Positions 539 through 62,266 of a stretch of 64,000 nt of DNA are shown in pieces. Under the pieces are notes generated by a model. The model searched no databases, was not told the origin of the DNA, and saw nothing but the letters and a program-made list of their open reading frames with translations. Position numbers and translations under genes: made by a program. This DNA comes from a virus (taxonomy: Duplodnaviria > Caudoviricetes), in IMG/VR virus record IMGVR_UViG_3300021400_000126, positions 1 through 64,000 of that record, one strand, 5' to 3'. Every line of letters starts with the position of its first letter. The first letter of the stretch is position 1.

Positions 539-2329
539 ATGAAATATCAATTAATAAATAAACCAAATAATAATTTTTCGACTATTTAGCAAATATTATA
601 TAATAGAGGAATTGATGAAGATAAAATTGCACATTATTTAAATTTATCAGATAATGATATTAATTCTCCTTCATTATTAGGAGAATATAATTTAAAACAT
701 GGATTAATATTAATCATAAATACAATTAAAAATAACTCAAACGCTGTTATTATTATTGATTGTGACTGTGATGGATATACATCTGCCGCACTTTTAATTA
801 ATTATTTATATAAATTATTCCCTACCTGGGTAATAGATCATTTAGATTGGATAATGCATGATAGTAAACAACATGGTTTAGCAGATTGTTACCAACAAAT
901 CGCAGAAGGCAATATTATAACAAAAAAAGAATATTCTTTAGTAATTTGTCCTGATTCAAGCAGTAATGATTACGAATATCATAGATACTTAAATAATAGA
1001 GGAATTTCAGTTTTAATATTAGACCATCACTTGGCAGATCACATCAGTGAAAATGCTGTTACAATTAATAATCAATTATCTGAATATCCAAATAAAGAAT
1101 TGTCTGGCGTTGGTGTCGTTTGGCAATTTTGTCGTTATATTGACTCTCAATTAAATATAAATTTTGCAGATGATTTTTTAGATTTGGTTGCTTTAGGTAA
1201 TTGTGGAGACATGATGTCTTTAAAATCATTTGAAACCCGCTATTTAATTACAAAAGGATTTAAGAAAAAAAATATTAAAAATCCTTTTATTGATTATATG
1301 CTTGATAAAAACTCTTTTCCATTATCAAAAGCGGATTATGTATCTTCTGATTCAGAAACAGCCTGCACTTCAATTGGAGCCGCCTTTTTCATTGTTCCTT
1401 TTGTTAATGCTATTACAAGAAGTGGAACAATAAAAGAAAAAGAATTACTTTTTAATGCTATGTTAAATCATAAAGCTTTTGAAGAAATTCTTTCAAATAA
1501 AAGAGGTCATAAACTAGGAGAAAAAGAAAAATTAATTTTACAAGCAATTAGAACGGTTACAAATGTTAAAAATAGACAGACAAGAGCAGAAGAAGCTGGA
1601 TTAAATATGCTTGAAAAGATGATTGTGGAAAACAATATGTTAGAACATAAAATTTTGTTATTTTTATTAGAACCTGGACAAATAGATTTAGAAATTCGCG
1701 GTTTAATAGCAAATAAATTTATGGCTAAATATCAAAGACCTTGTTGTTTATTAACAAGAACATAGCATGATAGTTATGAGGGATCTATGCGAGGATACAC
1801 TAGAACTGGTATAGATAGTTTTAAAGAAGTTTTAGAACAATGTCCTCAAGTGTTATTTGTACAAGGTCATGATAATGCTGCGGGATTAGGCATAAAAGCC
1901 AATCAAGTAAATACTTTTTTAAATTACATTGATATGCTTTTAGAAGATGTTTCTACAGAATCCATTTATAAAGTTGATTATGATTTTAAAGAAATGGATA
2001 ATAATAATGAAACTATTTTAGACATTGCAAATATGAATGATTTTTGGGGACAAGATATAGAAAGAGCTTATATTAATATTAATTTTAGAATTACTGATTC
2101 TAATTTTCAAATTATGAAAAGTAATACTTTAAAATTTAATCTTCCAAATGGACTTTCTATAATTAAATTTAATGGAACAGAAGAAGAAATAATGAATTTT
2201 ACAACAACAGGATACTTAGAAGTAAATGCAATCTGCAAATGTAATGCTAATGAATGGAATGGACGAACTTATCCACAACTTATGTTACAAGATTATGAAA
2301 TAGTTGATTCTTCAAAATATTATTTTTAA
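539..2329 (+). CDS. recJ: RecJ-like DHH/DHHA1 ssDNA exonuclease, 596 aa with two in-frame TAG codons
   Basis: One frame from ATG 539 to TAA 2329, broken only by TAG 587-589 and TAG 1763-1765; DCDCDG, LDHH, LSGVGV and QGHDNAAG motifs; joins track ORFs 854..1765 and 1787..2329. Confidence 0.9.
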
Positions 2330-2343
2330 AGAGGTAATGATAT

Positions 2344-2679
2344 ATGGCAAAAGTAGGAAATAAAAACAATAAAGCAAGATGTGAAAGATATAAACATGAA
2401 AATAGAAGAGCAATTAATAAAGAAAAGAAAGCAAAAAAGCACGAAAAATTAATTGCAAAATTTAAGAAAAGAAAAGAAGAAAATAAAACTTATAAGTATT
2501 GTGCAATTCCTTTTAAAAAAGATTCTTTAGAATATAATAGAGAAAAGCAAAAAAGAATAGAGAAAAATAAGTCTAAAAAATTACCTATTTCTCAATTTGA
2601 TTCCTTAATGCGAAAATTAGAAAATGAAATTTTAGAACAGAAAATTTTAGAAAAGAAAAAACAACAGCAAACAGCGTAA
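2344..2679 (+). CDS. hypothetical basic (Lys-rich) protein
   Basis: ORF with GAGGT RBS, operonic between recJ and the helicase. Confidence 0.7.
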   Translation: MAKVGNKNNKARCERYKHENRRAINKEKKAKKHEKLIAKFKKRKEENKTYKYCAIPFKKDSLEYNREKQKRIEKNKSKKLPISQFDSLMRKLENEILEQKILEKKKQQQTA

Positions 2680-2690
2680 GGAAAAATTTT

Positions 2691-3875
2691 ATGCAATTGA
2701 CAAAAAAACAAGCGGAAGGATTATTAATAGCAATAGATAGATATGACTCTGGAAAAAAATTTACAGTAATTAGTGGATATGCGGGCAGTGGGAAATCAAC
2801 TCTAGTTCGTTTTATTATAGAGGCTCTTGATGTTGAAGAAAAAGATGTTTGTTATTGTGCCTTTACAGGTAAAGCTGCAGAAGTCCTCCGCAAAAAAGGA
2901 AATAAAAATGTTTGTACATTACATAAATTATTATACGAACATATTCCAAAACCTAGCGGGGGCTTCTTTAGGAAGCCAAAATTATCAATTGGTTACAAAG
3001 TTGTAATAGTAGATGAAGTTTCCATGGCTCCAAAAAGTTTAATAGATTTATTATTTTGCCATCCAGGAGTTCATGTTATTTGTTTGGGAGATCCTTTCCA
3101 ACTTCCACCAATTGATAAAAATGAGGATAACAAATTATTAAATCATCCTCATATTTTTCTTGATGAAATAATGAGGCAGGCCCAAGAATCTGAGATTATT
3201 CGTTTAACAATGAAAATCAGAAATCAAGAACCTCTTAATTATTTTGATGGAGAAGAAGTAAAAGTAATTCCATATAAAGATTTAAATACAGGTATCTTAC
3301 AATGGGGCGACCAAATTTTAACTGCAACTAATGCAAAACGCCAAGCTATAAATAATCAAATGAGAACCCTATATGGAAAAGAAGGTGCGCCGCAAGATGG
3401 TGATAAAATAATTTGTCTCAGAAATTATTGGGATGATTATAGCGAACAAGGTGATGCATTAATTAATGGTACTATTGGGATTCTTGAAAACAGCTTTAAA
3501 ACATGGAGAAATATCCCGCCTTTTATAAAATCTAATATTAAAAAATTTGATGTATTGACAGGAAATTTAATTATTCCAGAAACAAATGATATTTACTCAA
3601 TGGTAGAAATGGACTATAATATGTTTTTAACTGGAAAGAAATGTTGCGATTGGAAATTATCCTATAGATTAGGTAGACTTAGACAAAAATATGGAGAAAT
3701 AGTTCCCAAAGAATTTGCTTTCGCATACGCTGTAACTGGACATAAGGCACAAGGATCAGAGTGGCCTAATGTAGTAGTATTAGAAGAACAATTTCCTTTT
3801 GATAAAGAAGAACACGCACGATGGTTATATACTTGTTGTACTCGAGCAAGTGAAAAATTAGTATTGGTAAGATAA
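2691..3875 (+). CDS. Dda/RecD2-like superfamily 1 helicase
   Basis: Walker A GYAGSGKS, VIVDEVSM, LGDPFQLPP, TGHKAQGSEW, LYTCCTRA. Confidence 0.9.
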   Translation: MQLTKKQAEGLLIAIDRYDSGKKFTVISGYAGSGKSTLVRFIIEALDVEEKDVCYCAFTGKAAEVLRKKGNKNVCTLHKLLYEHIPKPSGGFFRKPKLSIGYKVVIVDEVSMAPKSLIDLLFCHPGVHVICLGDPFQLPPIDKNEDNKLLNHPHIFLDEIMRQAQESEIIRLTMKIRNQEPLNYFDGEEVKVIPYKDLNTGILQWGDQILTATNAKRQAINNQMRTLYGKEGAPQDGDKIICLRNYWDDYSEQGDALINGTIGILENSFKTWRNIPPFIKSNIKKFDVLTGNLIIPETNDIYSMVEMDYNMFLTGKKCCDWKLSYRLGRLRQKYGEIVPKEFAFAYAVTGHKAQGSEWPNVVVLEEQFPFDKEEHARWLYTCCTRASEKLVLVR

Positions 3876-9908: not shown

Positions 9909-12164
9909 ATGTATGTAGTAAAAAGAGATGGCAGAGAAATGCCTTTTAATACTGAAAAAATCAAAAAAGCAATTTTAAAATCTTTTAAGGCGGTAGATGG
10001 TTAGATCACCCCATATGCTGAAACAAAAGCAGAAAATATCGCAAATTATATTGAAGGATATTGCGAAGAGGAAATTAAACCACTTTCTATAGAAGAAATT
10101 CAAGACCTCGTAGAAAATGGATTAATGTCAACTAAAAGAAAAGATGTTGCTAAAGCATACATAAAATATAGAGAACAAAGAACAAAAGAACGAAATTGGA
10201 ATAATAAAATGATGCGGGCAGCCCGTAAAAAACTCGCAGGATCTCATATTGAAAATCAAAATGCAAATGTTGATGAACATTCATTTGGCGGTCGCCGCGG
10301 TGAATTTGATTCAATTATTGCTAAACAGTATGCTTTAGATAATTGTATGTCTAAAATGGCTCGTGAAAATCATTTAAATAATGAAATTTATATTCATGAT
10401 TTAGATCATTATGCTGTAGGAGACCACAATTGTTTATCAATACCTTTTGATGATTTATTAGCTAATGGATTTAATACTCGTCAAACAGATGTAAGACCAG
10501 CTAATTCAATTAATACTGCTTTTCAATTAGTAGCTGTATTATTCCAACTTCAAAGTTTACAGCAATTTGGCGGCGTTAGCGCAACGCATTTAGATTGGAC
10601 TATGGTTCCATATGTAAGAAAAAGTTTTTATAAACATTTTTGTGATGGAGTAAAATATTTATGTGATTTATCTGATTCAATTTATGACCATATAAATGAT
10701 AAATTACCAATTAATAGTGAAGAATATCCAATATGTGATAGTTATAAATATGCCATGGATATGACTGAAAAAGAATTACAACAGGCTGTTGAAGGTATGT
10801 ATCACAACCTTAATACACTTCAATCCCGAAGTGGAAATCAGTTACCTTTTACTTCTATTAATTATGGTACTTGTACACTTCCAGAAGGTCGAATGGTCAT
10901 AAAAGCATTACTTGAAGGAAGTATTAAAGGTGTTGGAAAATTTCATAAAACACCAATTTTTCCATGTGGAATTTTTCAAGTTATGAAAGGAGTTAATAAA
11001 GAACCTGACACACCGAATTATGATTTATATAGATTGGCTCTTGAATCAACAGCAAAAAGGTTGTATCCTAATTATGCTAATGTTGATTGGAGCGGAAATG
11101 CAGGTTATGATCCAAAGGACCCAAAAACTTATTTTAGTACAATGGGGTGCCGCACTGCTAATGGCTTTGATATAAATGCCGAGCTAGGTGTCAATCCGCA
11201 AATTAAAGATGGGCGCGGAAATATTTGTCCTGTAACAATTATTCTTCCCACTCTTGCGATGGAAGCTAAAGAATATATAATGAAACATTCTGAATCTTTC
11301 AGCGAAGACTTAGAAGGCCAAACAATTGATAATTTTATGAATTTACTTGATCAAAAAATTCATGAAGCTAAAGACATGCTTCTTGAAAGATTTGAATATA
11401 TTTGTTCACAAGACCCATCTTCTGCAAAATTTATGTGGGAAAACCATACTATGTTAGGTTATAAACCAGAAGAAGGAATTCGTTCTGCTCTTAAACATGG
11501 CACAATAGTAATTGGTCAATTAGGTCTTGCAGAATGCTTACAAATTCTTATTGGTAAGGATCATACAACAAAAGAGGGTATGGAATTAGCTAAACGCATA
11601 GAACAATTATTTAAAGATAGATGCGCTGAATTTAAACAACAATATAGACTTAATTTTGGTGTTTATTACACTCCTGCCGAGAATCTTTGCTATACCGCAA
11701 TGAAAAAATTTCAAGAAAAATATGGTATGATTCCAAATGTTAGTGATAAAGAATTTTTTACTAATAGTATTCATGTCCCAGTTTGGAAAGAAATTGATCC
11801 TTTTACAAAAATTGATATTGAAAGTCAATTAACAGGATACTCAAGTGCGGGATGTATTACTTATGTAGAATTAGACAGTGGAATTTTACATAATATAGAC
11901 GCTCTTGAGCAAATTGTAAATTATGCTATGGATAAAGATATTCCATATTTTGCTTTAAATATTCCAAATGATTTATGTTTAGATTGTGGATATACAGGAG
12001 AAATTAATAATAAATGTCCAATGTGCAGCGGGGAATCAATTCAAAGATTAAGACGTGTTACTGGATATTTAACAGGAGATTATAAAACAGCTTTTAATTT
12101 TGGGAAACAACAAGAAACAGAATTAAGATTTAAACACTCCACTTTGCTAAGGGGATATAAATAA
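9909..12164 (+). CDS. nrdD: class III anaerobic ribonucleotide reductase with N-terminal ATP cone (one in-frame TAG)
   Basis: AGGAGG RBS, ATG 9909 gives MYVVKRDG (ATP cone); TAG at 10002-10004; IYIHDLD, MGCRT, CLDCG..CPMC and RRVTGYL motifs. Confidence 0.93.
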
Positions 12165-15155: not shown

Positions 15156-16316
15156 TTAAAATGAATCTTCTAATTTAACTAAAATATTTTCAGCTTTTGC
15201 TAAATCCAATACAACACTATCTGATGCATTTTTAGCTTTCTTTTTTGAGCTATCAGAAATCATTTTAGCTATTTTTTCTTTACTTTCTTTATCATTATAA
15301 ATTCTATTTCTCTATTTTGATTCCTATTTTGAATCTCTTGTAAATACATTTCTAATTTCTTCAAAATTTCCTTTTCCCACTTTTCTAATTAAATCAATTA
15401 AGGGTTCATGAGATCCAGTTTGAGCTGACCCCGACTTTGCAGAAATTTGTAAAGTATTTTCTAAAGCTTGTATATCTTGAACTAATGTGCCTGCGGTATT
15501 ATCTACTTCACCAATATAAGTTGTAAAAATTCCAATATCCTTTTCTATCTCATTAACTAAATTAGGTTGTTTCGTTACCATAGCAATGTAACCTTCTTTT
15601 ACATCTCCAAGTGTAGTTATATAAAATTTTTTCCAAGTTCCATCTGGCTTGTATAATAATAAAGCCTATCCATAATATCTTCCTTTTCCTATTACATTAT
15701 AAAAAACATTTAATCTTCTTCTACTTTCTTGATAAATTTTTATATAAGAATCTTGTACAATAATTTTACTATATAAATTACTATGATCATCCTTATTATT
15801 AATGAAATTCAACATTTGATTATTAGACTTTAATTTTCCTTGAAAATCTGATAATGAATTTCTAATAAAATTTTCCATAGCAGAAAAACCTTGTAATTTA
15901 ATAACTATTGGAGTTAAATCTTTATCTTCTATTACAATTTCTTGAATAAATTCCTTACCTAAAGTTTTTAAAAATACAGTTTTAAATCCAGTTAATAAAC
16001 TTTCTAATTTTCTTGAAGCATTTGCCAAAGTAGATACTGTTGTCTTTATAGATTCTTTTGCTCTCTATCCTCCATAAGAGGATTGCTATTCAGGGTTTAT
16101 TAAATTTTGTAATTGCATTCGATGAGCAACTAAGCCTTTTCCTTTTATTTTATTTTCTTCTTTATAATAATTATCATAAAAATTAATAAAATTTTCACAA
16201 ATTTCTTTTAGACCGCCTTCTAAAATTGTTTTTGCATCTTCTTTATTTAATAATCTTTGTAATTCTTGTAAAATCTATTGAGCTTCAGAATTAAATTGAC
16301 TATTATCAACAGCCAT
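15156..16316 (-). CDS. hypothetical protein, 386 aa with several in-frame TAG
   Basis: AGGTGA RBS, ATG 16316, single frame to TAA 15156 joining track ORFs 15666..16028 and 15324..15581. Confidence 0.7.
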
Positions 16317-16336
16317 ACTTTATCACCTATATAAAA

Positions 16337-16366
16337 AAATAGGGGATTAAAAATAACCCCCTATTT
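16337..16366 (-). terminator. intrinsic terminator after the major tail gene
   Basis: AAATAGGGG / CCCCTATTT stem with U-tract on the - strand. Confidence 0.7.
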
Positions 16367-16381
16367 AATTCTTATTAATCA

Positions 16382-17338
16382 TTAACCCTGTGCGTCATCA
16401 GTTTCACCATCGCTATTTCCATCTACAGAATCCTTAATAGATTCATCAATATTGAAACCAGTAGGATGTGGGAATAACGGTTTAGCATCATTCTTAGCTT
16501 CAGTCGCATCATCAACAATCTGAATAGCACATAAAACCTTATTAGTTCTATTGAAATATGTGTAACCTGGGAATGCATCCATAGTAAATGTAAATGTACT
16601 AGGATCACCTGTAGAAGCCATAGAGAATGTAAAGTTAGATTGAATCTTAACATTCGGGAATGTTAAGTTGGCAGGTAAATCTTTACCATCGGATTGACGT
16701 CTAAATAATGTATCTGCCTCTACATAGTAATAACCAGCAAAGTTTTCAGCATCAATTTGAAGCTCAGAAACAGTTCCTTCAGCTTTGAGAACATAATAAT
16801 CAACCATAACAGCGCCACTAACTGCATCTGCTCCTGATGCACGAGTAAGTTTTCTTCCATCTGTATCAACAGACCAGTTTTTAATAACCTCACCAGTAAT
16901 GTCTCCATGAGCATCAAGCTTCATTACATAAATTGGAGCAGTAGGACAAATTTTTTCACCAGCCTCTAAAGCATCATCAAGATCAATTTCTCCATTACCA
17001 ATAACTGCATTAGTTGTTTGATGGAAATGAATCTTTTTAGTAGAGCTTGCGGCACCTTTAATAACGCCAGCACCAGATAACATAGCAAAACTAATCGGAG
17101 AAAGTAAAGCATCTTCAACTGTAAATGTTAAAGTTTTCTCACCTTCCCAGGCAATCAAACGAGTATTACCACGACCACCTGTTGCATATACAGTAGTAGC
17201 CGCACCTTCCATGGAAGAAGTTTTTGCAGAGTCTAAGTAGAATACAGGTTGTCCTTTTTCAAAAGTATAAGGTCCAATTTTTTGCTGATTCTTTGCTTTA
17301 AACACTACATTAGCAATTTCACGAACACCAAATTTCAT
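16382..17338 (-). CDS. major tail (tube) protein
   Basis: MKFGVREI...YATGGRGN..LIAWEGE...GDPSTFTFTMD resembles tail-tube proteins of large Bacillota siphoviruses; follows neck genes; no TAG. Confidence 0.75.
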   Translation of the reverse strand: MKFGVREIANVVFKAKNQQKIGPYTFEKGQPVFYLDSAKTSSMEGAATTVYATGGRGNTRLIAWEGEKTLTFTVEDALLSPISFAMLSGAGVIKGAASSTKKIHFHQTTNAVIGNGEIDLDDALEAGEKICPTAPIYVMKLDAHGDITGEVIKNWSVDTDGRKLTRASGADAVSGAVMVDYYVLKAEGTVSELQIDAENFAGYYYVEADTLFRRQSDGKDLPANLTFPNVKIQSNFTFSMASTGDPSTFTFTMDAFPGYTYFNRTNKVLCAIQIVDDATEAKNDAKPLFPHPTGFNIDESIKDSVDGNSDGETDDAQG

Positions 17339-17386
17339 TTGGATTTCCTCCTTATATTTTATACGAAATATGATTTTATTGTTTTT

Positions 17387-18124
17387 TTATTCCTAATGAA
17401 TATCCTTTAACCAGTCTTCAGGATCTTCCATGCCAGTTGCACCGGCAATTTTAAATCTCTACCAAGAGTCATAATGTAATTTTAACTCAAACCGTTTAAA
17501 TTCATCCATTAATTGATAAACAGTATAATTCATATAACTATTTATATCTTTTTGTAAGCCTACTGCTAAAACAGAAATATAGCGACTAAAAATAGCAACT
17601 TTAGTATCAGGCGCCAGCTTCGCCTTCTACTGTCTACCTCTTTTAATTTTATTTGCAATCTTTTTAGCTAACTATCCACTTGGATTATACTATTTATCTT
17701 CTTGATTTGAAAGACAAAACATATCAATTAAGATTTGCTTAAAGGTCTAAAAATTTTCATTATTAATTTCTTTAACCTAACCACTCTAAGGATTTCTTAA
17801 TTGTATTACATTCTTTCTCAACAAAATCTCATTTGTTGGGAACAGCAGTGCAAGAATAGACATTAATTTTACACGAGCCTATTTTGACTCTATTGATTTT
17901 TCTTGCACTACCGTCATTATTATATTAAAATTTGATATATTAGATAAACCAACTTTGTCCTAATCAAGTAATATTTCTTTATCAAATTTTAATAACTAAC
18001 ATCCAGTCCAAAAATGCTATTCAGTGATATATGCAATTTCTTTTAAAGTAGGCTGATGAATAGTAAATCCTGCCTAAGGAAAAGGAATATCATTTCCAGA
18101 AATCAAAAGTAATTCATCAATCAT
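17387..18124 (-). CDS. conserved hypothetical virion-module protein, 245 aa with about 13 in-frame TAG (absent from ORF track)
   Basis: ATG overlaps upstream TGA (ATGA at 18121-18124); frame has no TAA/TGA until 17387; IHQPTLKEIAYI, YTVYQLMDEF. Confidence 0.75.
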
Positions 18125-18723
18125 CTTTTTATCCAATCATGCTAACTTGGTAAAACATCATCCGTACCATGAATCGCAAAATAAGTTAATGTATATCCAG
18201 ATAATGTTTCATCTAATACCAATTCATTGCATCCTAAAAATTGAAAAGTCCCAATTCCTGACAAACGAGCATTGTTTAAAATTCCATCAATATACCCACA
18301 AATTTTTAAAGGTCTAAGCCTAAAATTACCAAGGTCCCAATAGTCAGTATGACATAATACATCAATATGAACATTGCAGTCTCTAAATTGCGGATTTGTC
18401 TCATTTGTCCTAAAATTATCAAAAGAAAAAATCAAATAAGTTTTAATTTCTTCATGCTCAGGCATTTTTATCTTAGGTTCAAATTTGATATATCCCTATT
18501 CTCTTAATTTAGAAAGACTCATATCTTTAATAGCATCTTGATAAACCAAACTTGTTGTATTATCTAAACAATCTTTTGTATTTATTACTAATAATTTTTT
18601 TAAATCATTACTATAAGGCTGACTTTCTACAAACAATTTTCTTAAAATTGCTTCTAAATCTTTTTCGCAAGATAAAAAAGATGAAGTAAAATCAGTTGGC
18701 CTTAAAGCTAAATCTCTTTTCAT
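18121..18723 (-). CDS. putative tail terminator/neck protein (two in-frame TAG)
   Basis: Joins track ORFs 18496..18723 and 18142..18465 in one frame ending at TGA 18121; AAGGAG RBS. Confidence 0.7.
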
Positions 18724-18749
18724 ATGTTTTATCCAACTCCTTTTATCTC

Positions 18750-19736
18750 TTAAAGAGAAACAATTTCAACTTCTAATGTAATATCATCATTTCCCTATAC
18801 TCTATATATCAAGGTAAATTTTCCTAACTCCCCAATGGAAACATTTAAAGGTATAATTTTTAAAGAACTATTTAAATCTTGTTCTTGTCCTTTCCATTTT
18901 AAAAACCATTTTCCACCATCTGCATTACAAATTTCATAATAAGCTTTACTATACTGGGTTACAGATACTGGACCTTTTATATAAGGAGCGGTTTTATTTA
19001 CCGAACTATCTTTATTTATTGCAGACTATTTTTCTTTTTCAGCCTTATCCGCAATTGTATTTTCAAAAAATTCATCTAAAAAGACCTGTAAAATTCCATC
19101 TCCATAATAAGGATCGACACCAACTACTTGCCAGGTTTTTTCCTTATTAAATTTAGGATTAAAAATTTTAACTGTTTTAAATCTTTCAAAATGACTATTG
19201 GTTAATTCATCCGCGGTAATATACATTACCAATGAATAATTTAAAGTATTCCATTCAATACCTGCCTTTTGAGTCCATTCAATTGATGTCTCAACAGGTC
19301 CACGAATATAAACCCAATAAGATTTATCTCCTATTTTTACCTACTGATCGCACCTACGAATTTCAGACCTAAAGTAAGCATCTTCTTCAATATATTCCAA
19401 ATAAACTAACCAATGAGTATCAGTTTCTTTCCAAGTAAAAACATCCCCAGCTTTTATTCCTATCTCTTCCTATCCCTAAGAAGTTTTTCCAACTCTAGGA
19501 GAATTTAAACATACATCTTTATACGGAATAGATAAAATTTTATTATCATAAGCGGGTTTATTTCTATTTGGATTAATTAAACATCTAAACTATCTACCAT
19601 CAGCAAGAACTGCGGTTGCGGCTTGATAAGAATATAATAAAGCTCTTTTTAACCCTATTAATTTATCTTTTATAAACCTTTGTTCTTGATTACCACCTTG
19701 GTATTGTAATCTTTTATTTAATAATTCTACGGACAT
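18750..19736 (-). CDS. putative head-closure/neck protein (several in-frame TAG)
   Basis: Single frame ATG 19736 to TAA 18750; DGR*FRCLINP, GDVFTW, EEDAYFRSEIRRC. Confidence 0.7.
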
Positions 19737-20047
19737 ATTTGTTTTTGTAAATCATTCATTAAACTTAAACATTCAAAAATAGTTCTTCTATAACAAGAAA
19801 AATCCATTTCCTAAGTTAATGAATAAAGTCCTTCCAATTTATTTAAAAGAGGGAAAAAAATCTATGGATAGCCGCAATCCATTAATCTTTGCATTCCCGC
19901 CAATTCTTCCAAAATAGTTTCTAAAGGTTTTTCCCAATCAATTCCTTCTTCTCTATTTGGTAAAAGTTTATAAGTTTGATTAATAAGATTTTGTAATCTA
20001 TTAAAAATTATTTTATTTTCTATCTAAACATTATATTTTAGTATCAT
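19718..20047 (-). CDS. hypothetical virion-module protein (in-frame TAG)
   Basis: ATG overlaps upstream TGA; YKLLPNREE, KLEGL, RRTIFECL. Confidence 0.65.
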
Positions 20048-20616
20048 AAAACCCCATCCTTTAAATCTTTAAAAGTATAATCGACAGGGGTCCTAAGTAT
20101 TCCAAAAGTTGATCGCATAATTCCATTTTTATCTGGAATCCTTCTTTTATAAAGTCTTTGTAAATGAAAGCCTTCACGCTCATAATCTTTTTTTAATTGA
20201 AGAAGTTTTTGCATATGATTTGCTTGAGAAGTAAATTTAAAATCAGAGCCACTGTATTTCATTCTTGTATTTTCAACACTTGCAAGTTGTTGACTTAACC
20301 ACTCTACAATCATATACACAGCTAAAATGTTTATTTCTTCATGTGTCAATCTATTGTTAAAGCAACCACCCTAATAAATTACCATTGGAACGTCCTAATC
20401 ATCACTTTCTACTCCATTGTAAATTCTTTCATCAATAATCTCAAAAAGGTCATAATTAGTTAAGTCAATTCTAGGGAACTAAAATTTATCAATAGCAGAT
20501 AAAAGAAGTTGCTCTAGCATCCTAAAAGTGTCTATTTCCGTTAATTCTAAATACATATCATCTGTAATCTTAGAAAGAAAGGAGTCATATACAAGTGAAA
20601 AAGAAGTAGTATTCAT
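20044..20616 (-). CDS. putative head-tail adaptor (three in-frame TAG)
   Basis: AAGGAGG RBS, ATG 20616; FLSKITDDMY, KF*FPR, DFKFTSQANHMQKL. Confidence 0.72.
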
Positions 20617-20638: not shown

Positions 20639-21211
20639 TTATTTTCCGATAATTATTTTAGCTCTCCGCTTAGATGCATCATTAGTAGTTTTCACAGGTG
20701 CGGTTCTTCTTGTTTTTGAAGAAGTGTTCTCATTAGATTCTTCTGTTTCACCATCAAATTTAGTATTTTTAATTTCAATTGCTTTTGTTACATTGAAATT
20801 TAATTTATCTTGAATAGCCTGTCTTTTTTCCATATCATTTAAAGGTAAATCAACCGCCATTTCTTTAATAATTTCTTTAGTTACAGAAGGAGCAAAATCA
20901 AGACAATCTAAAAATTGATCTAATGTTCCTGTTAACATTAATTTTTTAATATCTTCTCGATTATAATGATATTCTGGTTCAACATTAGATTCAAAAAGCT
21001 GTTTTATAGCCTCTTCATCTTCAATTTCTAAAAATTCTCTTAAAATTACTTCGCCACCTGGTGAATAATAAACTTTCTCTAATTCATCATAAGTAATTTC
21101 TCTAGTTTGATTCGGATAAAAATTTCTATGTAAATTAGTATCAGGGACATCATAACCAACTGTCCCACCAAATTTATTTTTAACTTTAATAATAGTATCT
21201 TTATTAACCAT
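20639..21211 (-). CDS. conserved hypothetical protein downstream of the capsid gene
   Basis: Intact ORF, AAGGAG RBS. Confidence 0.75.
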   Translation of the reverse strand: MVNKDTIIKVKNKFGGTVGYDVPDTNLHRNFYPNQTREITYDELEKVYYSPGGEVILREFLEIEDEEAIKQLFESNVEPEYHYNREDIKKLMLTGTLDQFLDCLDFAPSVTKEIIKEMAVDLPLNDMEKRQAIQDKLNFNVTKAIEIKNTKFDGETEESNENTSSKTRRTAPVKTTNDASKRRAKIIIGK

Positions 21212-21238
21212 ATTATATTTACTCCTTTTATCTCCAAA

Positions 21239-21271
21239 AATAAGGGAGAATTATAAAAATTCTCCCTTATT
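21239..21271 (-). terminator. intrinsic terminator after the major capsid gene
   Basis: AATAAGGGAGAATT / AATTCTCCCTTATT stem. Confidence 0.8.
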
Positions 21272-21291
21272 TATTTTTGTATTGTTAATTA

Positions 21292-22350
21292 TTAAACAGA
21301 TTGTTGAGGTGCTGTTACATCAGTGGTAAGAGAAGCGTTCTTATAAACACAAATACCAGGATTAAGAATGTAACTTGCTACACCAAATTTTTGATAAGTC
21401 TGAATTTCTGTAGACCAATCTCTATTATCAAAAGATTTTACCTGTGCAGAACCTTCAAAAGCAACTTTAATAGGTTTTTCAGCACCAGTAGGAATAATCC
21501 ATGCATAAGACGGGTCAATTACTTTTTTACTATTTGTTGTATCTGTGAAAGATTGCGGAAGAATAATTACTTGATGTCCTTTATAGGTTGTAAAATAACC
21601 ATTATTCCAAATTTGTTCTTTCATTCCATCAGACCAAGTTGCACTATTTGCCGGAATCATTTTTGCTGCAAATTCAAAAGTACAATAAATAGTAGCTTTT
21701 CCATAAGCATCTGCAGTTTGAAGTAATTGATCCATTGCATTTTCATTAAATCCACTTTGAACGGTCTTATTATAAGCAGGAATATCACCAATAGAAGCAA
21801 CAAGAGCCTTTGCAATCTCTCTATAAACAGCTTCATCCATTCCTTCAAGAACTATACTATAATAGTCATTCATTGTCATACGACCATCAAGCAATTCTTC
21901 CCATTCAATTCTGGAAGCTCCGCCGTAAGCTCCTGTCGGAACTTCAATGGTTCTTCCATCAAGCTTGAATACTTCATATCTACCTGCTAAACCAACTCTT
22001 GTTACGAATTGCTTAGCACGAGCCTTTGAAGCTTCACTAATTCTAATTTTATATACGGGTTTAACTCCCTGAGCAAAAGTACGAACATCCGCAAATTGTC
22101 CATAAGACTGAAGAACTTTCTGAGGAATAACTTCTGTTAAACCTACTTCCATAAGAGTATAAATAAGATTTTTATTTTCTCTAAAAAGTTGCGGTGTTGC
22201 TCCTAATTCATTTAATTCTTTAATATAAGTTTTATTTAAAGCATCTGCTGAAAGGCTTTCTCCACCAAAAGAATAAGCAGCGGAAGGATTTAAGGAAGCC
22301 CTAGCATTTGCCCTAGCTAATTCAATAAGCTGATCTCTATTTAATGCCAT
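21292..22350 (-). CDS. major capsid protein
   Basis: 352 aa, AAGGAGG RBS, follows protease/scaffold and decoration genes, terminator downstream; no TAG. Confidence 0.8.
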   Translation of the reverse strand: MALNRDQLIELARANARASLNPSAAYSFGGESLSADALNKTYIKELNELGATPQLFRENKNLIYTLMEVGLTEVIPQKVLQSYGQFADVRTFAQGVKPVYKIRISEASKARAKQFVTRVGLAGRYEVFKLDGRTIEVPTGAYGGASRIEWEELLDGRMTMNDYYSIVLEGMDEAVYREIAKALVASIGDIPAYNKTVQSGFNENAMDQLLQTADAYGKATIYCTFEFAAKMIPANSATWSDGMKEQIWNNGYFTTYKGHQVIILPQSFTDTTNSKKVIDPSYAWIIPTGAEKPIKVAFEGSAQVKSFDNRDWSTEIQTYQKFGVASYILNPGICVYKNASLTTDVTAPQQSV

Positions 22351-22366
22351 TTCTTTCTCCTCCTTG

Positions 22367-22942
22367 TCACTGAACTCTTTGAATCTTTACACCATCAGAT
22401 TTTGCATCGGGCATAGTAGTAAGTGCTACAACCTTCCATACCATACCAGTTGAAGGCATTGTTGTTGCAGCTGAGCCACCAGATTGTGCAACCTCAAGAA
22501 AACCTGTTGTACCAACTTGTAAATAATTTCCTTTTGAAATAGCAACACCTTTAGTTTCTGCGGTATTAGATGTATTAGCTTCAAATGTATTTGTTGTAAT
22601 AATATCACCAACGTTAGTTTTAATTAAACGTGGATACATTTTCTTATCAAAAAAGTCTTCTGCTTTATAAACAAAATCCTTATGACTTTGAAGTCTCTCA
22701 TCATAAAGTTTTTCTTCATTATAAACAAGCATAAATTCTCCATCGCCTGTGAAATTTACTTCGCCAGCCGCATAATCATATTTTGCAAACTGTCCTTGCT
22801 CTAATTGAGTAATTGAGTCTGCAGATCCAACATCTGCTGTTTTAACATGTGCCGGTAATTGTGCGTAAATCTGACCAGTAACAATACCAGAAAGGTGGTT
22901 AGGCTCAACTTGTCCATATCCTTTTCTTTTAATTGTTGCCAT
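22367..22942 (-). CDS. putative capsid decoration/structural protein
   Basis: GYGQVEPNHLS...GQIYAQLP; lies between scaffold and capsid genes. Confidence 0.65.
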   Translation of the reverse strand: MATIKRKGYGQVEPNHLSGIVTGQIYAQLPAHVKTADVGSADSITQLEQGQFAKYDYAAGEVNFTGDGEFMLVYNEEKLYDERLQSHKDFVYKAEDFFDKKMYPRLIKTNVGDIITTNTFEANTSNTAETKGVAISKGNYLQVGTTGFLEVAQSGGSAATTMPSTGMVWKVVALTTMPDAKSDGVKIQRVQ

Positions 22943-22968: not shown

Positions 22969-24309
22969 TTAACCAAGTTTCTCTTGTTCTTTAACAGCTC
23001 TTACCCATTCTGGTAAATTACTGTCTTTATCATTATTTAAATTATAAGTTATAATCTCTTCTTCTTTCTTTTCCTATTCATTCATAGAAAAATTAATTTT
23101 CTTATCAAAACAAATAACAGAAAGTTTTGCTTTGATTTCCTCTAAAGTATAATTTTCCTTATTCTGAATAATTTCTGCCTTATCTTCTTCAGGCAACATA
23201 TAAAATTCAGCAATAAGAGCGTCTTTTTTCTGATTATCAATTTCTTTTTTGAAATTTACAAGTTCTTGATATTGTTCTTGAAGCTTACTGTAACTTTCTT
23301 TTAAAGTATTAAGTTCATTTTCAATTGCAGTATATCTCTTCTTTTTTTCATCATCCTTGTCATCTTCAGAGCCTTCTTCTGTAGACTCATTCTACTTATC
23401 TTTTTCGTCTGTAGAATCGGATTCAGAAGCAGAACCGCCTTCTTCTGAAGTTTTTTCTTTCTCTTCTTCTTCATCCTTTTTAACATAATCAGAAGACGCA
23501 AGAGTATCATCTATATTATCGTTATTTTCTGTGGTCACTTCTTCTGTTTTTGTAAACTCTGTAGTAACTTCTTCTTCAGAAATAACAGTATTTTCAAGAT
23601 TATCCATCTAGTGTCCTCCCCTATTTAAGACGTTTTTTAAATCTTGTAACATACTATATAAAGTATGTTTAAATTTATCGTCTAAGGTAAAATTCGTACT
23701 TACATTAGGAGAAGTAATAGAAGCCCCCTAAAAACAAGGTTCAACATCCTATCCTAATATACAAATTTTTTGAATAACTGCATCATTTATAATAAAGAAA
23801 TCTAAATTGTTATCAAAACTAGTTTCCCAATGTCCCTTTACAGAATCTTTTTCAAGTTCCATAGATTGCGGACGACCTTCTTCCACAGGTAAGCTGGATT
23901 CTGGGAATTGAGAAGTCCAAAGGTATCCTGTTGTCATAAGATATTTATGAACAACTTTATTACCCATGCTATCACTATCTTCAAAATTTTGAAACCAAAC
24001 ATCTGCATCGGGAGACACAAAACCATAAGGAACTGTTTGACATTCAAATTTTATTCCTTCATCATCAATAATAACCTTTTCTCCATGATCAGTAAAATCT
24101 TCTTTACTATCTCTATAATATCCAACTATTGGAGCCCCTCTAAGGGTTTTTCCAATTTCAGCTGCAACCTTTTCATCAATGAAAGTCTGATTTCTATTGG
24201 CTCCAACATATAAAACTTTAATTTCACATTTTGACATTAAAGGATTAATATCGAGAGGTTGAAGATTTAAAAACTCAGGAGAATCTATTGTTGCAACCGA
24301 TTGGTGCAT
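22969..24309 (-). CDS. putative prohead protease-scaffold protein, 446 aa with five in-frame TAG
   Basis: One frame ATG 24309 to TAA 22969; NRN..I, PIVG, TVPYGFV, TTGYLW, PQSMEL, CILG*DVEPCF*GAS, then acidic coiled-coil region. Confidence 0.8.
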
Positions 24310-24387: not shown

Positions 24388-25977
24388 TTAATTCATAGAC
24401 TACTTATTTTGAATAGTTTTAGTTGATTTTTCATCATCCTCTTTTTCAGGTCTTCCCGCACCACTTTCTGAACCCTAAACTTCTTTATTTCTATTAAGAA
24501 CATCCGCATTCATGGTACTAGACATCAACGGAGGAATAAATACATTAACTAAATCAAGAATATCATTTTCAAAGTATGCAGTAGCTAATATTGAACTTTG
24601 AGATTGTCCAAGAGCAATTTGTGGTAACATTTTTGAATAACCTAATTGAGTATGCTCTTTATATTGTTTAGCTAAATCTTTATAATTATAAATGGTTGTT
24701 GGAAGAATTTGTGCTCTATAAGTAACCTTTTTTGGATTTTTATTATAAGGTATTAATAAAGTATTTAAAAATGTTTCAAATTGTTGAATTAAATTCCACA
24801 TTGAGGCCTCATCATTTAAAATAGATTTCTCAAGAGCAATATTTCCATCTGTATTAAATTGCATTTGAGAAATACCAGCCTCATTATAAACAGACCTTTC
24901 AACCTTCTCTAAATCATCTTTTGTTGTTGTAGTGCGGTTATCTGATGTATTTGCAACTTCAACGTCTGCAAAAGTAGTTAATACATCAATCCCAATAGCC
25001 TTAGATAGCATCTGCACCGCATTATTATGAAGCTGTTGTGCTTCATCAACATCAAAAACTAAATCACCATTTTTATCTATAGGTAATTTTTGAATAATAA
25101 TTTTTAATAATTGCTGTTGCATTTTTCTTCTATCTAAATCTTGAGCTTCATCTAAATCAATAATTGCAGGGACAACCGCAATAAGGGGCGGAAAATCCTC
25201 CCCATTTAAATTAAACTTTATTACAGACCCAATTTCAAGTAAATACCAACCAGAATCGTCTCCAGGAAAATCTGGTTTTAATTTATTTTGCCTATATAAT
25301 TTATAACCTTTTTCAAACTCTGAAGGGAAAACTTTTAACATTTTCATTTTTTGCTAAACGTCTGTAAACATATCGTCAAAATATTTCATATTAAATTCGA
25401 CTGCGGGTTGACCATTAACTGTAAAACGCACTCTACAATATCTTGGCGGCAATTCTTGAACTACTATACGATTCTATTTTGCGATTAAATATCCATAATA
25501 GCATCCATTTTTAACAACTTTTAAAGCAACATCTCCAAAAAATTTTTTTACCTAAAAGTTATCTAAATATGTTAAAATTTTATAAAAACCCTCAAGTAAT
25601 TTATCAGGCTTCATATTTTTTGAATAATGTGGTGTGATAAGCCAATCATATCTATACATATAAGCTAAATATCTACAAAGTCTTTGATAAATACCACTAA
25701 CTTTATAAAAATAATTTGAAATACTTCTCATCTTTTCAAAGTTTCCATAATGTATAGCTCTTAACACCTATTCTCTTTTGGCTAAACTAGGATTTACTTT
25801 TTGAAAATCTCCTAATTTAAAAATTGCATCAGAAACTGTTTTTATTCCAACTCTAATTTTAGAAAAATCTGTTGAAACATATTCTTCTTCCATCGTATTC
25901 TAATTTAAATTTTGGTAATCTTCAGTTCCAATCATATTAAAGCCTTTTTTCTTAATCTAAGCCATTCGATTTATCAA
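24388..25977 (-). CDS. portal protein, about 529 aa with in-frame TAG
   Basis: GAGGT RBS and TTG 25977; single frame to TAA 24388 joining track ORFs 25552..25767 and 24475..25347; lies between terminase and protease. Confidence 0.78.
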
Positions 25978-25996: not shown

Positions 25997-26353
25997 TTAA
26001 TAACCCGCCGCCCTTAAAATATAGTCATAATCCATTCTAGCTTCATCCCAATAGGGAATAATTACTAGAGTGATTCCATGATTTTGGCAATATTCTCTTT
26101 TTTTCATATCATAAAATTGTTGTTTTCTTAATCCACTATATCCACCAAATTTACTTTTTGCTTCATAATGTTGAATTCCTTGAAACTATATTAAAAAATC
26201 AATATTGTGCTAATCATCAAAAACCGCAAAATCAAATCTTAAAGGGCGACCTGTGTTACTTACTAAATCTGGAAAAGAGTACTCTTCTACGAACTCTAAG
26301 CCAGATTGTTGTAAAATCTCCTCTATTTTTATTTCTCCTCTTGAAGCTCGCAT
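25997..26353 (-). CDS. Vsr/DUF559-like PD-(D/E)XK nuclease (two in-frame TAG; absent from ORF track)
   Basis: GGAGG RBS; SRGE..I, PLRFDFAV, LI*FQGIQHY, D..KREYC, IIPYW. Confidence 0.8.
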
Positions 26354-26416: not shown

Positions 26417-28153
26417 TCAGTTTTGTGTAAAAAATAAAAAATCAGCAATATTTCTTTTTTTCTTTTTCTTATTTATCTCTTCCTAATATCGTATATAATA
26501 TAATCCATATATAAAAGCTGAAAACTTATCTTTTTTAATACTTCTATTGCTTTGTTTTAAAATAATATTAACTCCTTCATTCTATTCAACTAGATTTAAC
26601 ATTTGTTCTTTTAAAATAGAAGTTAAAATAAAAGGTCTTAAATATTCATTTCTTTTATCAATATTCATATTTTGACCTTGTCTAGTTGACATTAATTTTG
26701 TTTTTGCTAAACTTTCATCAATTAAAAATCTAATTTTACCACTAAACATTTGCGTTTGAGCATAACTATAAGCCTATGTATTTATAGGTGCATTCGCCTT
26801 AATTAAAAACAAAACATCTTTTTCAGTTTCAGGTGTAACATATTTTTTATATTCAGGATACTAATCTGTGTTAAATACTCCAAAAGGTGGTAAAAATTCT
26901 CCATCATCGGTATCTTGCGGTTTAACTAAATAATCAATTAGACCCACGCCCAATCCATTCGCATCAATAGCAATCCTACGTGGTTTATATTTATAATATA
27001 GTCGTTTTATATGAATACATTGGTCTTCAAAATGCTAACTTGCGTATGTATAGATATTAACTAATGTCTTTTGTGCGGCCCCTTGAACTTGCGGCGTTAC
27101 TTTAAATACACAAATCTCGGTTGTACATCCAACTCTACCAACGTCAATGCCAAGAACATAATATGCATTTTTTGCCGACCTTCCGCTATATTCATACTCA
27201 GGTTGCAATAAAACTCTATATTTATCAAATCTTTCAGATGAGAAAAAGGCATTTTCTACATCTCCAGACCAAATACTTCTATACTATCTATTAAAAGACT
27301 AATCATTAAAAGTTCCTTGTAACCTTAATTGCTCTACAAAATCTTCATCCAATAGACCAGAAATAACGGGTGTCTAATAAGTTCCTCCCATTATCATATA
27401 TTCATTTGGATCAAGAATAGAATTTATTAAAAGCTATATTAATTTATGATAAGCAAAAGAATTTTTCCAACCCGCCGTAGTTATATAAATCTGACTTTTA
27501 TTTACATTTTCTTCTTTATGTCTGCTTCCATCAGATAATCTTCTATCTACGTTTGTGGTAGGAATAATTACTTCATTTAAAATATCTCCATCAATTAAGA
27601 CACACTCTTCCATTAAACCACCTGTACGTCTTTGACCTCTTGATGATTGCCTTGCCGCAAGAATGTCAATAGTTGATCCATTTTTAAAAACATATTTTAC
27701 ATTATCTTTTGATTTAGTAGAAACCCCTCTATCCCAATTAATCTAATTCTTTAACCCAGGAATTAATTTACATATTTCTTCAATTTTTGCAATAGTTATA
27801 CTCGCAGCTTGTTCTTTTCCGCCAGTAGTTACAAATAAATGTGAATTAGGATATAAGATGCATCTAATCATTAATGCCATCATAGAAAGAAAGGATTTAG
27901 AATAAGCACGCGGGAATGTGGCATATACATATCTATGCCGCATCACAATTCTAAGAAAGACTCTTTGATAAAATAAAAAATTAAATGTACTATCTTTTCC
28001 TTTTATAAAATCAACAAAAATATCTGGATACTAACGAAAATAAGCAATAATGTTTCTTAATTTAGATAAATTTTCTGTTAATCTTTCTTCAGATAATCCC
28101 TGTTTTTTATAATCTCTTTCGGAAGATAATTGCAATAACTATTTTAAATTCAT
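26417..28153 (-). CDS. terL: terminase large subunit, 578 aa with about 12 in-frame TAG
   Basis: FYQR, Walker A-like FPRAYSKSF, RGQRRTGGLMEEC, ITTAG, GIDVGR, IDANGLG, KKDKFSAF. Confidence 0.88.
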
Positions 28154-29475: not shown

Positions 29476-29493
29476 AAAACTCCCCATTTCTTA

Positions 29494-45465: not shown

Positions 45466-45559
45466 TAATCATGGGGGAGTTAATCTCCCCTAATTTCCCC
45501 TTGACAACAGACAATAAAGTGTGCTATAATTTAATCAAACAATAGAAGGGAGATTAAAA

Positions 45560-45961: not shown

Positions 45962-46146
45962 GCTGGTTTTTAAAAAATTAGCCTATTTTTTATTAAAATC
46001 AGATAAAATTCACCACTTTAACTCGCTAAAGCGCGCCCGGGCCCGCATTTTTTCGCACTTTTTTCAAAAAAACCCTTGACAATCAAATGAGTTAATGCTA
46101 TAATAGCATTGTAAACAAGAGAGAGAATAAGAAAGGAGCAGAAACC

Positions 46147-46404: not shown

Positions 46405-46481
46405 AAATTTAAAAAACCTATTGACATCCGTATAGAGATGTGATATAATACAGACAGATAAGAAAGAAAGGGGTTTTGAAA

Positions 46482-46919: not shown

Positions 46920-47028
46920 ACCTTTGAGGATTCGGCCCGGCCCACCGCATAATTTTTTAAAAAAAGTATTGACAAATAAATAAATCTATAGTATAATTAA
47001 GACATCAAGAGAAAGGAAGGACATAAGA

Positions 47029-51235: not shown

Positions 51236-52015
51236 TCATTTTTTCATTTTAACTCCATCAAAAAAACCATTTAACTATACATTCATTCCTAAACATTCAA
51301 AATAAGACCCAGCCCTACTTGAAATAAAAGCATTATTTTGCTCCAATAATCTTTTTACATCCCTAATTTGTTTATAACTTAATCCTGTAATATTAGCTAA
51401 ATCCGCATATGTAAAAGGCTGATTTTCTTCACATATTCTAATAGCTTCCCAAACTTTTAACAATTGCGGAATCTTATTAAAATTCTTATGATTTTCATCT
51501 GCAATTTTTTGACATTCCCGCATCATATTAATACTAATAGAATATTCTTTCTATACCCCTCTTTTTAAATATAAAATAATATAATCCTAATCCTAATGAC
51601 AAAAAATAGTTTTTCTTTCAACCAAAGACTAAATTACCTAATTTAAAATCTAAATATTTTTTTTAGTCTGTTTAATTCCCACATATTTCAATAACTATTT
51701 ACGGGAACCCCTATAAACTCCTTGCGGTGAAGCTGCTAAAGCTAAAAAAATAAAAAACTAATATTCTTCAAAACTTAAACTTTCAATAGTAATAGGAATA
51801 TCATCAATCTTCTAATTATATATTGTTAAAGCTCTTACATCATCTTCAAATATTTGATAATAATTTTTTCCATCTTTTCTACATTTAACAATATCAACCT
51901 TATATTTTTTCTTAATGGATGTGGCGGTTCGTGAAAAAGCCTTAACAATACTATTCTAACTATATCCAAATAATTCTGCAATCTATTTAGCAGTCATTAA
52001 GTCGCGGCGTTCCAT
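51236..52015 (-). CDS. multi-HTH DNA-binding protein, 259 aa with many in-frame TAG (possible initiator)
   Basis: GAGG RBS, ATG 52015 to TGA 51236; MTAK*IAELFGYS*NSI and TYADLANITGLSYKQIRD helix-turn-helix patterns. Confidence 0.72.
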
Positions 52016-60952: not shown

Positions 60953-61031
60953 TTTGAAAAAATAAAAAATTTTTGATATAATAAGTATATAAAGAATAAG
61001 AAAGAGCATTTTTTAAAGGAGATATGATTTT

Positions 61032-61421
61032 ATGGAAAATACAGTAAAAAAGACAAAGGCTATGTATTTTGCAGAGTTAAAAGATATGGTAATGGAAGCA
61101 GAGGAAATTACAGATGAGCTTAAGGATGAATTAGTTGATTTCCTTGATAAGCAGGTCGAGGCTATTGAAAAAAGAAAAGCGGCAGCTGCCGCAAGAGCAG
61201 AAAAGAAGAAAGCAGAATCTGACGCTCTTACAGATGCAATTTTTGCCGTTATGACTGAAGAGCTTATGACAGCAGATGAAATTATGGACGCCCTTGAGGA
61301 TGAAACCGCCACAAAGAATAAGGTTACTGCAAGATTAACTAAGTTAATTAACGCAGAAAAGGTTGTAAAAGAGACTATTAAAGTAGATGGTAAAAGGAGA
61401 ATGGCTTATAAGTTAGCCTAA
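61032..61421 (+). CDS. winged-helix protein distantly related to the MTKREMFAEIR family
   Basis: TKAMYFAEL...LVDFLDKQVE.I..R...MTADEI...KVTARLTKLI...V.K. Confidence 0.7.
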   Translation: MENTVKKTKAMYFAELKDMVMEAEEITDELKDELVDFLDKQVEAIEKRKAAAAARAEKKKAESDALTDAIFAVMTEELMTADEIMDALEDETATKNKVTARLTKLINAEKVVKETIKVDGKRRMAYKLA

Positions 61422-61474
61422 TACTACTAAACGAAAGGGTGGGAATTGTCCCACCCTTCAAGCTAGGAGAAAAT

Positions 61475-62266
61475 ATGTTTTGTTTAAATTATTATCCTTT
61501 TTAGAAATATATTTAGGATGCTGAATAGTTAAAGATTAAATATCGTGCGGCAGACCGCACTTTAGAAGATTTTTTAAAAAAGTATCAAGATAAAAGTATT
61601 GTTATTAAAATTTAGGAACCTTTTGAAGATACTGACGCGGTTTTGTTAAAAGGTTTATTTGATAAATATCAAAATCTTAAACTTATTATAGATTTTGATT
61701 ATAAATAGGGTTTATCTTTAATTCAATAGTATCAGATTCCATTTTTCTTCTCTAATCCTGTTGGTTCTATTGATATATTATATGGTTTTTTAAAATATCA
61801 GCCTACAGATATGTATATTTGTGAAGAATTAGGATTTTTTCTTGATAAAGTTAGTAAAATATTGCATAAAAATAATATAAAAGTACGAGTTTATCCAAAT
61901 ATATGCCAATCTAGCTTTTCTGATACCCCTAGTTTAAAAACATTTTTTATTAGACCAGATGATATTCCTGTTTATAAGGTTTTTGTTGATGTTTTTGAAC
62001 TTATATCAGATCCAGAACGTCAATAGGTCTTATATAAAATATATAAAAACGAAAAGTGGTTTGGAAAAATTAATGAAATTATTCCTTCTTTTAAAGATGA
62101 ACTAGATAACAAATATTTATTCAATACTTCTTTTGGTGTAATTAGGAGTAGTTGCGGGAAAAGATGTTTATATAAACCTGGAACCTGTGATATATGTAAT
62201 CGTTTTATTGATGTTGCAAAAACACTTGAAAATAAACATATAGTTGTTTTAAAACGTAAGAAATAA
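61475..62266 (+). CDS. conserved hypothetical protein, 263 aa with seven in-frame TAG
   Basis: AGGAG RBS, ATG 61475 to TAA 62266; RVYPNICQ, FFIRPDDI, CGKRC...CDIC. Confidence 0.72.

Follow-up and report, generated by a model that had tools for sequence, protein, structure and literature searches.

We examined how the codon TAG is used in a 64,000-nucleotide stretch of viral DNA (positions 1 to 64,000 of IMG/VR record IMGVR_UViG_3300021400_000126; hereafter the window), which forms the first half of a 133,306-bp contig with 30% G+C and direct terminal repeats (CheckV completeness, 100%). The contig is the genome of a rumen siphophage of the SPbeta/YonF-terminase group. Our analysis suggests, with a probability that we put at about 0.87, that UAG encodes glutamate in the clade to which this phage belongs, at least predominantly. 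We read TAG as Glu because it interchanges with GAA and GAG and occupies the Glu positions of standard-code relatives. The original prediction, made from the window alone, that TAG had been reassigned to Glu and not to Gln was thus supported by recoded relatives, by TAG-free sister lineages, by cultured standard-code phages and by invariant alignment columns.

In-frame TAGs and the residues opposite them

Read with the standard code, the minus-strand block at 15156-30603 was fragmented, but resolved into contiguous open reading frames (ORFs) containing 2-13 TAGs each once TAG was read. Readthrough likewise lengthened the genes for a RecJ-like exonuclease (539-2329) and the anaerobic ribonucleotide reductase NrdD (9909-12164), as well as the ORFs at 51236-52015 and 61439-62266. 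None of the selected ORFs contained an internal TAA or TGA, and every one terminated in TAA or TGA, confirming the earlier claim that these genes are broken solely by TAG and become full length upon readthrough. Genome-wide, we counted 341 TAGs within ORFs of at least 100 amino acids, 326 of which were in genes holding at least 2 TAGs; such genes were mostly those for virion and packaging functions, while the large replication genes carried none. TAA was the main stop codon, and conserved genes were never broken by it. The large subunit of terminase (TerL) could be aligned to relatives over residues 1-578, spanning 12 TAGs. Since TAG recurs at identical positions across numerous independent assemblies (19 loci at position 28031 and 23 at 27284, with 463 TAG-TAG pairs overall), these comparisons exclude sequencing error as the source of the TAGs.

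As a measure of which amino acid TAG specifies, each codon of this phage was mapped to the aligned codon in relatives, and candidate amino acids were scored by log-likelihood against substitution profiles derived from the same alignments. IMG/VR contained 57 related loci, with TerL identities of 67-95%, and the nearest proteins originated in cattle-rumen assemblies. Opposite the TAGs of the window these loci carried GAA 1058 times, TAG 463, GAG 175, GAT 143, CAA 61 and CAG 49 times, and the reverse mapping, in which TAGs of the relatives were compared with the codons of this phage, gave the same pattern. Counting each site once, Glu was the majority residue at 53 of 74 TAG sites, and the log-likelihood over these 74 sites was -132 for Glu, -216 for Asp and -229 for Gln. 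Five complete recoded relatives (G001-G005; 63-68% amino-acid identity to this phage) were compared genome-wide, and in every one of them Glu led by 120-200 log units, whichever direction was scored. Where all relatives agreed (n = 60), 78% of TAG sites were Glu, 8% Gln, 5% Lys and 5% Asp. The composition of two TerL orthologues pointed the same way: the sum of Glu and TAG was steady (44 and 45), while that of Gln and TAG was not (33 and 21).

We likewise compared the TAG sites with phages that do not use TAG as sense. Distant IMG/VR relatives (L031, L036, L044-L047 and others; 54-70% identity) had aligned late genes free of in-frame TAG and were therefore taken as standard-code sister lineages. 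The log-likelihoods for Glu and Gln were -138.1 and -187.1 in L036, -134.1 and -182.9 in L046, and -108.4 and -152.4 in L045, and a further TAG-free contig, G110:C4, displayed Glu 38 times and Gln 12 times opposite TAG. Among cultured phages, Enterococcus phage H1 and Geobacillus virus E3 had TerL proteins 46% and 45% identical to that of this phage, respectively, with weaker matches to SPbeta/YonF-type terminases from Bacillus and Lactococcus phages. H1 and E3 together placed Glu opposite 35 of 115 TAGs and Gln opposite 6 (log-likelihood, -288.2 for Glu and -306.1 for Gln). Eight TAG sites were invariant in at least 3 standard-code lineages; 7 of these were Glu, one was Asp and none was Gln. 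In TerL, the TAGs at residues 137, 290 and 373 were Glu in all 5 standard-code lineages. The TAG columns of standard-code homologs were thus biased to Glu, being neither mostly Gln nor unbiased. TerL proteins from a large public collection, considered for the same purpose, were unusable as standard-code columns, comprising only close relatives already translated with TAG as Gln.

As a control we used phAss-1, a phage with a TerL 44% identical to that of this phage and for which TAG has been published as Gln (PMC10607447). The same pipeline returned log-likelihoods of -160.8 for Gln, -167.3 for Lys and -171.4 for Glu; the method can therefore separate Gln from Glu. The expectation under NCBI table 15, that TAG stands opposite Gln, failed in every comparison, with Glu ahead by 18-200 log-likelihood units. 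UAG is also read as Glu in NCBI tables 30 and 31 (peritrich ciliates, Blastocrithidia), in which UAA is reassigned too and the code applies genome-wide in a cell. The expectation under these tables, that TAA is likewise Glu, failed as well, since TAA terminates most ORFs. This phage appears to share UAG as Glu with the eukaryotic codes but differs from them in that UAG alone is affected, UAA is the main stop, the carrier is viral and the codon is biased to late genes.

All 12 TAGs cited in the original prediction exist in frame, each within 2 nt of the position given for it. Eight of them, at 23728, 28031, 27743, 27284, 26186, 20479, 51956 and 10002, were mainly Glu or TAG in relatives. The remainder behaved differently: position 23749, in a supposed protease motif, was mainly Asp (D 33, E 7) and not Glu; 51983 was divided among relatives (E, D, D); and 587, also expected to be Glu, was Gln in 5 of 5 relatives. 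A suspicion that 56031 was Gln-like was borne out in the sole relative that aligns there. The motif consensus residues behind these assignments were correct in TerL and in the nuclease, whereas the 'protease' site at 23749 departed from them.

The suppressor tRNA and its proposed charging

A search of the full genome identified the predicted tRNA with a CUA anticodon, located outside the window. It lies at genome positions 65806-65882, ~1.8 kb beyond the window edge (ARAGORN and Rfam; Rfam score, 45.8 bits), within an island at 64.3-68.1 kb comprising eight ordinary tRNAs, the CUA tRNA and a transfer-messenger RNA (tmRNA). Orthologous CUA tRNAs were present in all 5 complete relatives, from which they were recovered by BLAST; their sequences differ slightly from that of this phage. 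An exact-pattern search of viral contigs with the anticodon arm of this suppressor yielded no match. The six CUA tRNAs adopt a common cloverleaf fold, 8 of whose 20 pairs show compensatory changes; they have in common G2.U71, C3-C5 paired with G, U11:A24 and the loop CUCUAAA. All six carry C3:G70, and five carry A73. The enlarged D-loop and 4-nt variable loop of the copy in this phage are unlike those of its orthologues; the D-loop is 11 nt, the length in tRNA-Glu, in G001-G005 and longer in this phage.

Only the acceptor end and the D-arm proved informative with respect to tRNA identity. G2.U71 and C3:G70 also occur together in the tRNA-Glu of H1, of G000, of G004 and of G006, a metagenome-assembled genome (MAG). 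Among 173 parsed tRNAs, G2.U71 was found in 21, namely the six suppressors, 5 of 7 phage tRNA-Glu, and some tRNA-Asp, tRNA-Ser and others. The seven tRNA-Gln examined all had U1:A72, none had G.U at 2:71, and 5 had G73; the parsed tRNA-Gln of MAG G006 has a 9-nt D-loop. The suppressors of phAss-1 have G2:C71 and G73. The best cellular match for 4 of the 6 suppressors was tRNA-Glu of an Erysipelotrichaceae-labelled MAG (identity of the 5' half, 0.71-0.81). The suppressor shares G2.U71, C3:G70, A73 and U11:A24, and in G001-G005 the 11-nt D-loop, with the tRNA-Glu of H1, of the clade's own phages and of a co-binned MAG, but differs in its CUA anticodon, which places A, instead of C or G, at base 36, and in a C:G pair at 1:72 in 5 of 6 copies.

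A domain search of the phage genome found neither the catalytic domain of glutamyl- and glutaminyl-tRNA synthetase (GluRS and GlnRS; PF00749) nor a release-factor domain (PF00472), so that the phage-borne synthetase or release factor sought in following up the original prediction is absent at the level of these two families. Lacking GluRS and GlnRS, the phage must rely on host enzymes for the charging of its CUA tRNA. TerL relatives were co-binned with MAGs labelled Erysipelotrichaceae, Bacilli and Endomicrobiaceae; all three lack GlnRS and possess GatB, and their GluRS must therefore serve tRNA-Glu and tRNA-Gln alike. The GatCAB of bacteria recognizes its substrates through U1-A72 and refuses tRNA-Glu by virtue of G1-C72 and an extra D-loop base (PMC2811023; PMC9976931). 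All six suppressors have either C1:G72 or G1:C72 and none has U1:A72, as the mechanism originally put forward, charging by GluRS followed by escape from GatCAB, requires; charging and escape themselves remain inferred.

We propose that the host GluRS charges the CUA tRNA with Glu. The GluRS of hosts without GlnRS must presumably already accept both YUC and YUG anticodons, and would in addition tolerate A36 of the CUA anticodon. An alignment to Thermus GluRS aimed at the residue that reads anticodon base 36 ended at residue 321. GatCAB would then leave Glu-tRNA(CUA) unamidated, U1:A72 being missing and the D-loop being long as in the tRNA-Glu that it rejects; the suppressor carries both traits by which GatCAB rejects tRNA-Glu. 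In hosts with GlnRS, amber suppressors would drift to Gln, while in hosts with a relaxed GluRS and GatCAB a suppressor without U1:A72 would deliver Glu. We give even odds to the fuller proposal of a first natural UAG-to-glutamate code beyond the eukaryotes, made by a phage that placed a CUA anticodon on a tRNA-Glu-like body, with the amino acid following the route by which the host makes Gln-tRNA.

The tRNA island has further features. The tmRNA is full-length and lies at genome positions 67803-68083 (L001:3803-4083; Rfam RF00023, 101.9 bits, E = 1e-39), with a tag peptide predicted by ARAGORN as ADNYTYQMAA; at a guess, it could rescue ribosomes stalled by readthrough of host genes ending in TAG. 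TAG-bearing ORFs are interspersed among the tRNA genes at genome positions 64608-65024 and 66199-66966. In G001 (IMGVR_UViG_3300021399_000007), ARAGORN called a tRNA with a UUA anticodon at 90222-90296, which would read TAA.

Alternative readings of TAG

Several observations weigh against an exclusive reading of TAG as Glu. The share of Glu in relatives was 36-53% at TAG sites compared to 61-68% at ordinary Glu codons. Five of the 60 unanimous TAG sites were Gln, while unanimous sites at GAA codons were 92% Glu, 0.8% Gln and 0.8% Lys, and an expectation-maximization mixture over TAG sites assigned a weight of 0.61 to Glu and 0.11 to Gln. With respect to the suppressor, C1:G72 in 5 of 6 copies is unlike the G1:C72 of tRNA-Glu, the suppressors of this phage and G004 match no isotype clearly, and whole-tRNA identity with the anticodon masked, measured against 138 phage tRNAs, was ~0.65 for Trp, Glu, Met, Asp and Asn. 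The link to a host consists of MAG co-binning only, with one of the three bins labelled Endomicrobiaceae, and the whole case is one of comparative sequence analysis.

The excess of Gln was accompanied by an excess of Lys of about the same size. Since CAG and AAG, the first-position neighbours of TAG, are each a single step from it, we read the excess as mutational in origin; it fits a scenario in which TAGs were born by one mutation from Gln or Lys codons. Residue 17 of RecJ (coordinate 587), where TAG is opposite CAA or CAG in 5 of 5 relatives, is an example of such a Gln-type site. A minor share of Gln in the decoding of TAG is nevertheless possible. Decoding might be ambiguous, such that a Glu-charged suppressor that is partly amidated or otherwise charged inserts a mixture of Glu and Gln in which Glu is dominant. 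Together with the mixture weight for Gln and the RecJ site, this would be in keeping with Gln as the majority residue at 10.3% of TAG sites compared to 3.5% of ordinary Glu codons, and with 5 unanimous-Gln sites where ~0.5 was expected. We nonetheless consider ambiguous decoding improbable, since Lys (AAG) is similarly elevated and Asp is too, which suggests mutational origin together with relaxed sites, and since U1:A72 is missing in 6 of 6 suppressors and no invariant-Gln column holds TAG.

It is very unlikely that TAG specifies a different Glu-like residue, for instance Asp or an acidic amino acid that is modified or non-standard. Asp was the second commonest residue opposite TAG in several comparisons and occupied one invariant column, and G2.U71 is also present in 4 of 5 phage tRNA-Asp. 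However, Asp scored 80-200 log units below Glu in every close comparison, TAG was exchanged with GAA and GAG far more than with GAT and GAC, and a search for two families yielded no candidate in the phage for an enzyme supplying a non-standard residue.

The ordinary phage code, table 15, would make TAG Gln and the Glu signal a product of Glu/Gln exchangeability. In its favor, TAG as Gln is the sole TAG reassignment reported in phages (10.1101/2021.08.26.457843; PMC11210395), public pipelines translate this clade accordingly, and relatives have Gln at a minority of TAG sites. This reading is scarcely credible given that, in the same alignments, true Gln codons face Glu at 5-11% while TAG faces Glu at 36-53% and Gln at 7-12%, that the likelihood gap noted above recurs in every comparison while the phAss-1 control gives Gln, and that the CUA tRNA has no acceptor feature of tRNA-Gln. 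Taken together, these considerations leave UAG as a codon predominantly for Glu as the reading that we favor.

Gene content, proposed timing and implications

Many of the TAG-bearing genes belong to the minus-strand late block. TerL (26417..28153; 578 aa; PHROG phrog_2) has 12 in-frame TAGs, and the portal protein (24388..25977; 529 aa; phrog_2739, E = 5e-85) has 8, of which that at residue 526 is GAA in 5 of 5 relatives. A sigma-factor-like protein (29494..30603; 369 aa; phrog_5767, E = 1e-42) has 11 TAGs; with TAG written as X, LRXXIKK is opposite LREEIDK of phage H1, and IXMRQDQY is opposite IIEMRRDQY. A YonG-like late protein (28150..29487; 445 aa; phrog_3314) has 9 TAGs, and the product of a relative bears PF27269 YonG_N. 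A small homing-endonuclease-like protein (25997..26353; 118 aa; phrog_9084 and phrog_559) has 2 TAGs; opposite the one at residue 56, Glu is found in 46 loci, H1 and three TAG-free lineages. An argument that a TAG of this nuclease encodes its catalytic glutamate was dropped, there being no Pfam or PDB anchor for it. The 446-aa late protein at 22969..24309, formerly called a protease, matches phrog_3313, a family of unknown function; it has 5 TAGs, and in relatives residue 194 is Glu, residue 187 Asp and residue 234 Gln.

Six late or virion genes of the same strand, at 15156-16316, 17387-18136, 18121-18723, 18750-19736, 19718-20047 and 20044-20616, are open only when TAG is read and hold 2-13 TAGs apiece. 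Their PHROG matches include a virion structural protein, and most of their TAG sites are GAA, GAG or TAG in relatives. Five genes of the late block, all on the minus strand, carry no TAG: three at 20639..22942, a virion structural protein gene at 16382-17338, inside the late span 15156..20616, and a gene at 14601-15134. One of the three at 20639..22942 encodes a 352-aa protein that is the probable major capsid protein, as assigned by its position. TAG may thus be avoided in the most abundant proteins.

Elsewhere in the window, a 259-aa protein on the minus strand (51236..52015) contains 12 TAGs; a weak match to HTH_28 was its only match, so that a helix-turn-helix domain is not established, and its two cited sites are E, D or TAG in relatives. 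Three further TAG-bearing genes are on the plus strand. A 275-aa protein (61439..62266) with 7 TAGs had no family match in PHROG and Pfam searches. RecJ (539..2329; 596 aa; Pfam DHH, DHHA1 and RecJ_OB) has 2 TAGs, and NrdD (9909..12164; 751 aa; Pfam NRDD, E = 2e-147) has one, which is TAG in three relatives and Glu in one.

Judged from sequence, TAG is concentrated in late and structural genes, and early genes are readable in the host code. Four early genes on the plus strand, at 40512-40946, 45124-45468, 45560-45973 and 46476-46952, each have a single TAG 1-11 codons before a TAA or TGA, which at 45124-45468 forms a TAG-TAA tandem. Some relatives have TAA or TGA at the TAGs of the first two genes and three have TGA at that of 45560-45973, while for 46476-46952 the relatives show only one TAA and one TAG. 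Given the TAA and TGA codons of the relatives at these sites, TAG probably retains its stop function in some early genes and acts as a Glu codon at a later stage. In contrast, near-terminal TAGs of late genes align with GAA. Early genes, some of them still ending in TAG, would be translated under the host code, while late genes, including the sigma factor gene with its 11 TAGs, could not be translated to the end until the suppressor tRNA is available, so that the change of code would act as a timing switch. Synthesis of the sigma-factor-like protein (29494-30603) should depend on the suppressor tRNA, pointing to a gate at the level of translation ahead of late transcription.

In a quick TerL tree, all TAG-using rumen phages (1-17 TAGs in TerL) shared one side of a branch (SH-aLRT 94), with L031/L036, H1 and E3 on the opposite side and phAss-1 on a long separate branch. 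In this tree the recoded rumen clade was split from phAss-1 by TAG-free lineages, and recoding may have arisen separately in the two. The tree, although provisional, is compatible with a single origin of recoding in the clade, separate from the Gln recoding of phAss-1. With respect to hosts, a whole genome of the clade (L108 and L110; JBGUZU010000044.1, 139,570 bp) was binned with the Endomicrobiaceae-labelled MAG, and related phage fragments were found in the Erysipelotrichaceae- and Bacilli-labelled MAGs and as G110:C4; these are phage contigs, and a prophage state is not implied. A DNA search of 301 genomes from the family of the MAG yielded G110:C4 as one more phage-only contig and no clear CRISPR spacer, its matches being mostly low-complexity noise.

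The phage has the traits of recoded phages of the type described by Borges, namely interruptions by TAG only, a CUA suppressor tRNA and a late-gene bias. As in crAss-like phages, Lak phages and phAss-1, which use code 15, TAG is sense mainly in late and structural genes, TAA and TGA serve as stops, the phage supplies a CUA suppressor tRNA but no aminoacyl-tRNA synthetase, and a host with the standard code is assumed. Unlike these phages, it appears to insert Glu rather than Gln, and its suppressor has G2.U71 and A73 where that of phAss-1 has G2:C71 and G73. The surveys of recoded phages that we consulted all report TAG as Gln or take it for granted. One of them states that, among phages with a code unlike that of their host, the changes seen are limited to TAG to Gln and TGA to Trp (10.1101/2021.08.26.457843). 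We found no report in the open literature of TAG to Glu in phages, only of TAG to Gln, TGA to Trp and TGA to Gly. TAG as Glu in a phage thus looks like a new natural variant of the genetic code.

If so, gene callers that apply table 15 insert Gln where Glu is most likely at ~340 positions per genome, and public proteins are already affected. Full-length TerL relatives in a large protein collection (P0001-P0120) carry a mixture of E and Q across the 12 TAG positions, the underlying DNA (L141:1001-2737 and L142:1001-2737) yields those proteins only with TAG as Q, and in one public TerL relative 11 'Q' residues are TAG codons. Such mistranslation touches homology searches, structure prediction and the matching of metaproteomic peptides. 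An amber suppressor that naturally inserts Glu and evades GatCAB would be of interest for genetic-code engineering. A clade of the Glu type would indicate that a reassigned stop codon does not always acquire the same amino acid in phages, and would provide a natural test of tRNA identity rules. If true, the meaning of a recoded stop would be predictable from the tRNA-charging biology of the host, and other 'code 15' phages of hosts that lack GlnRS may have been mis-assigned.

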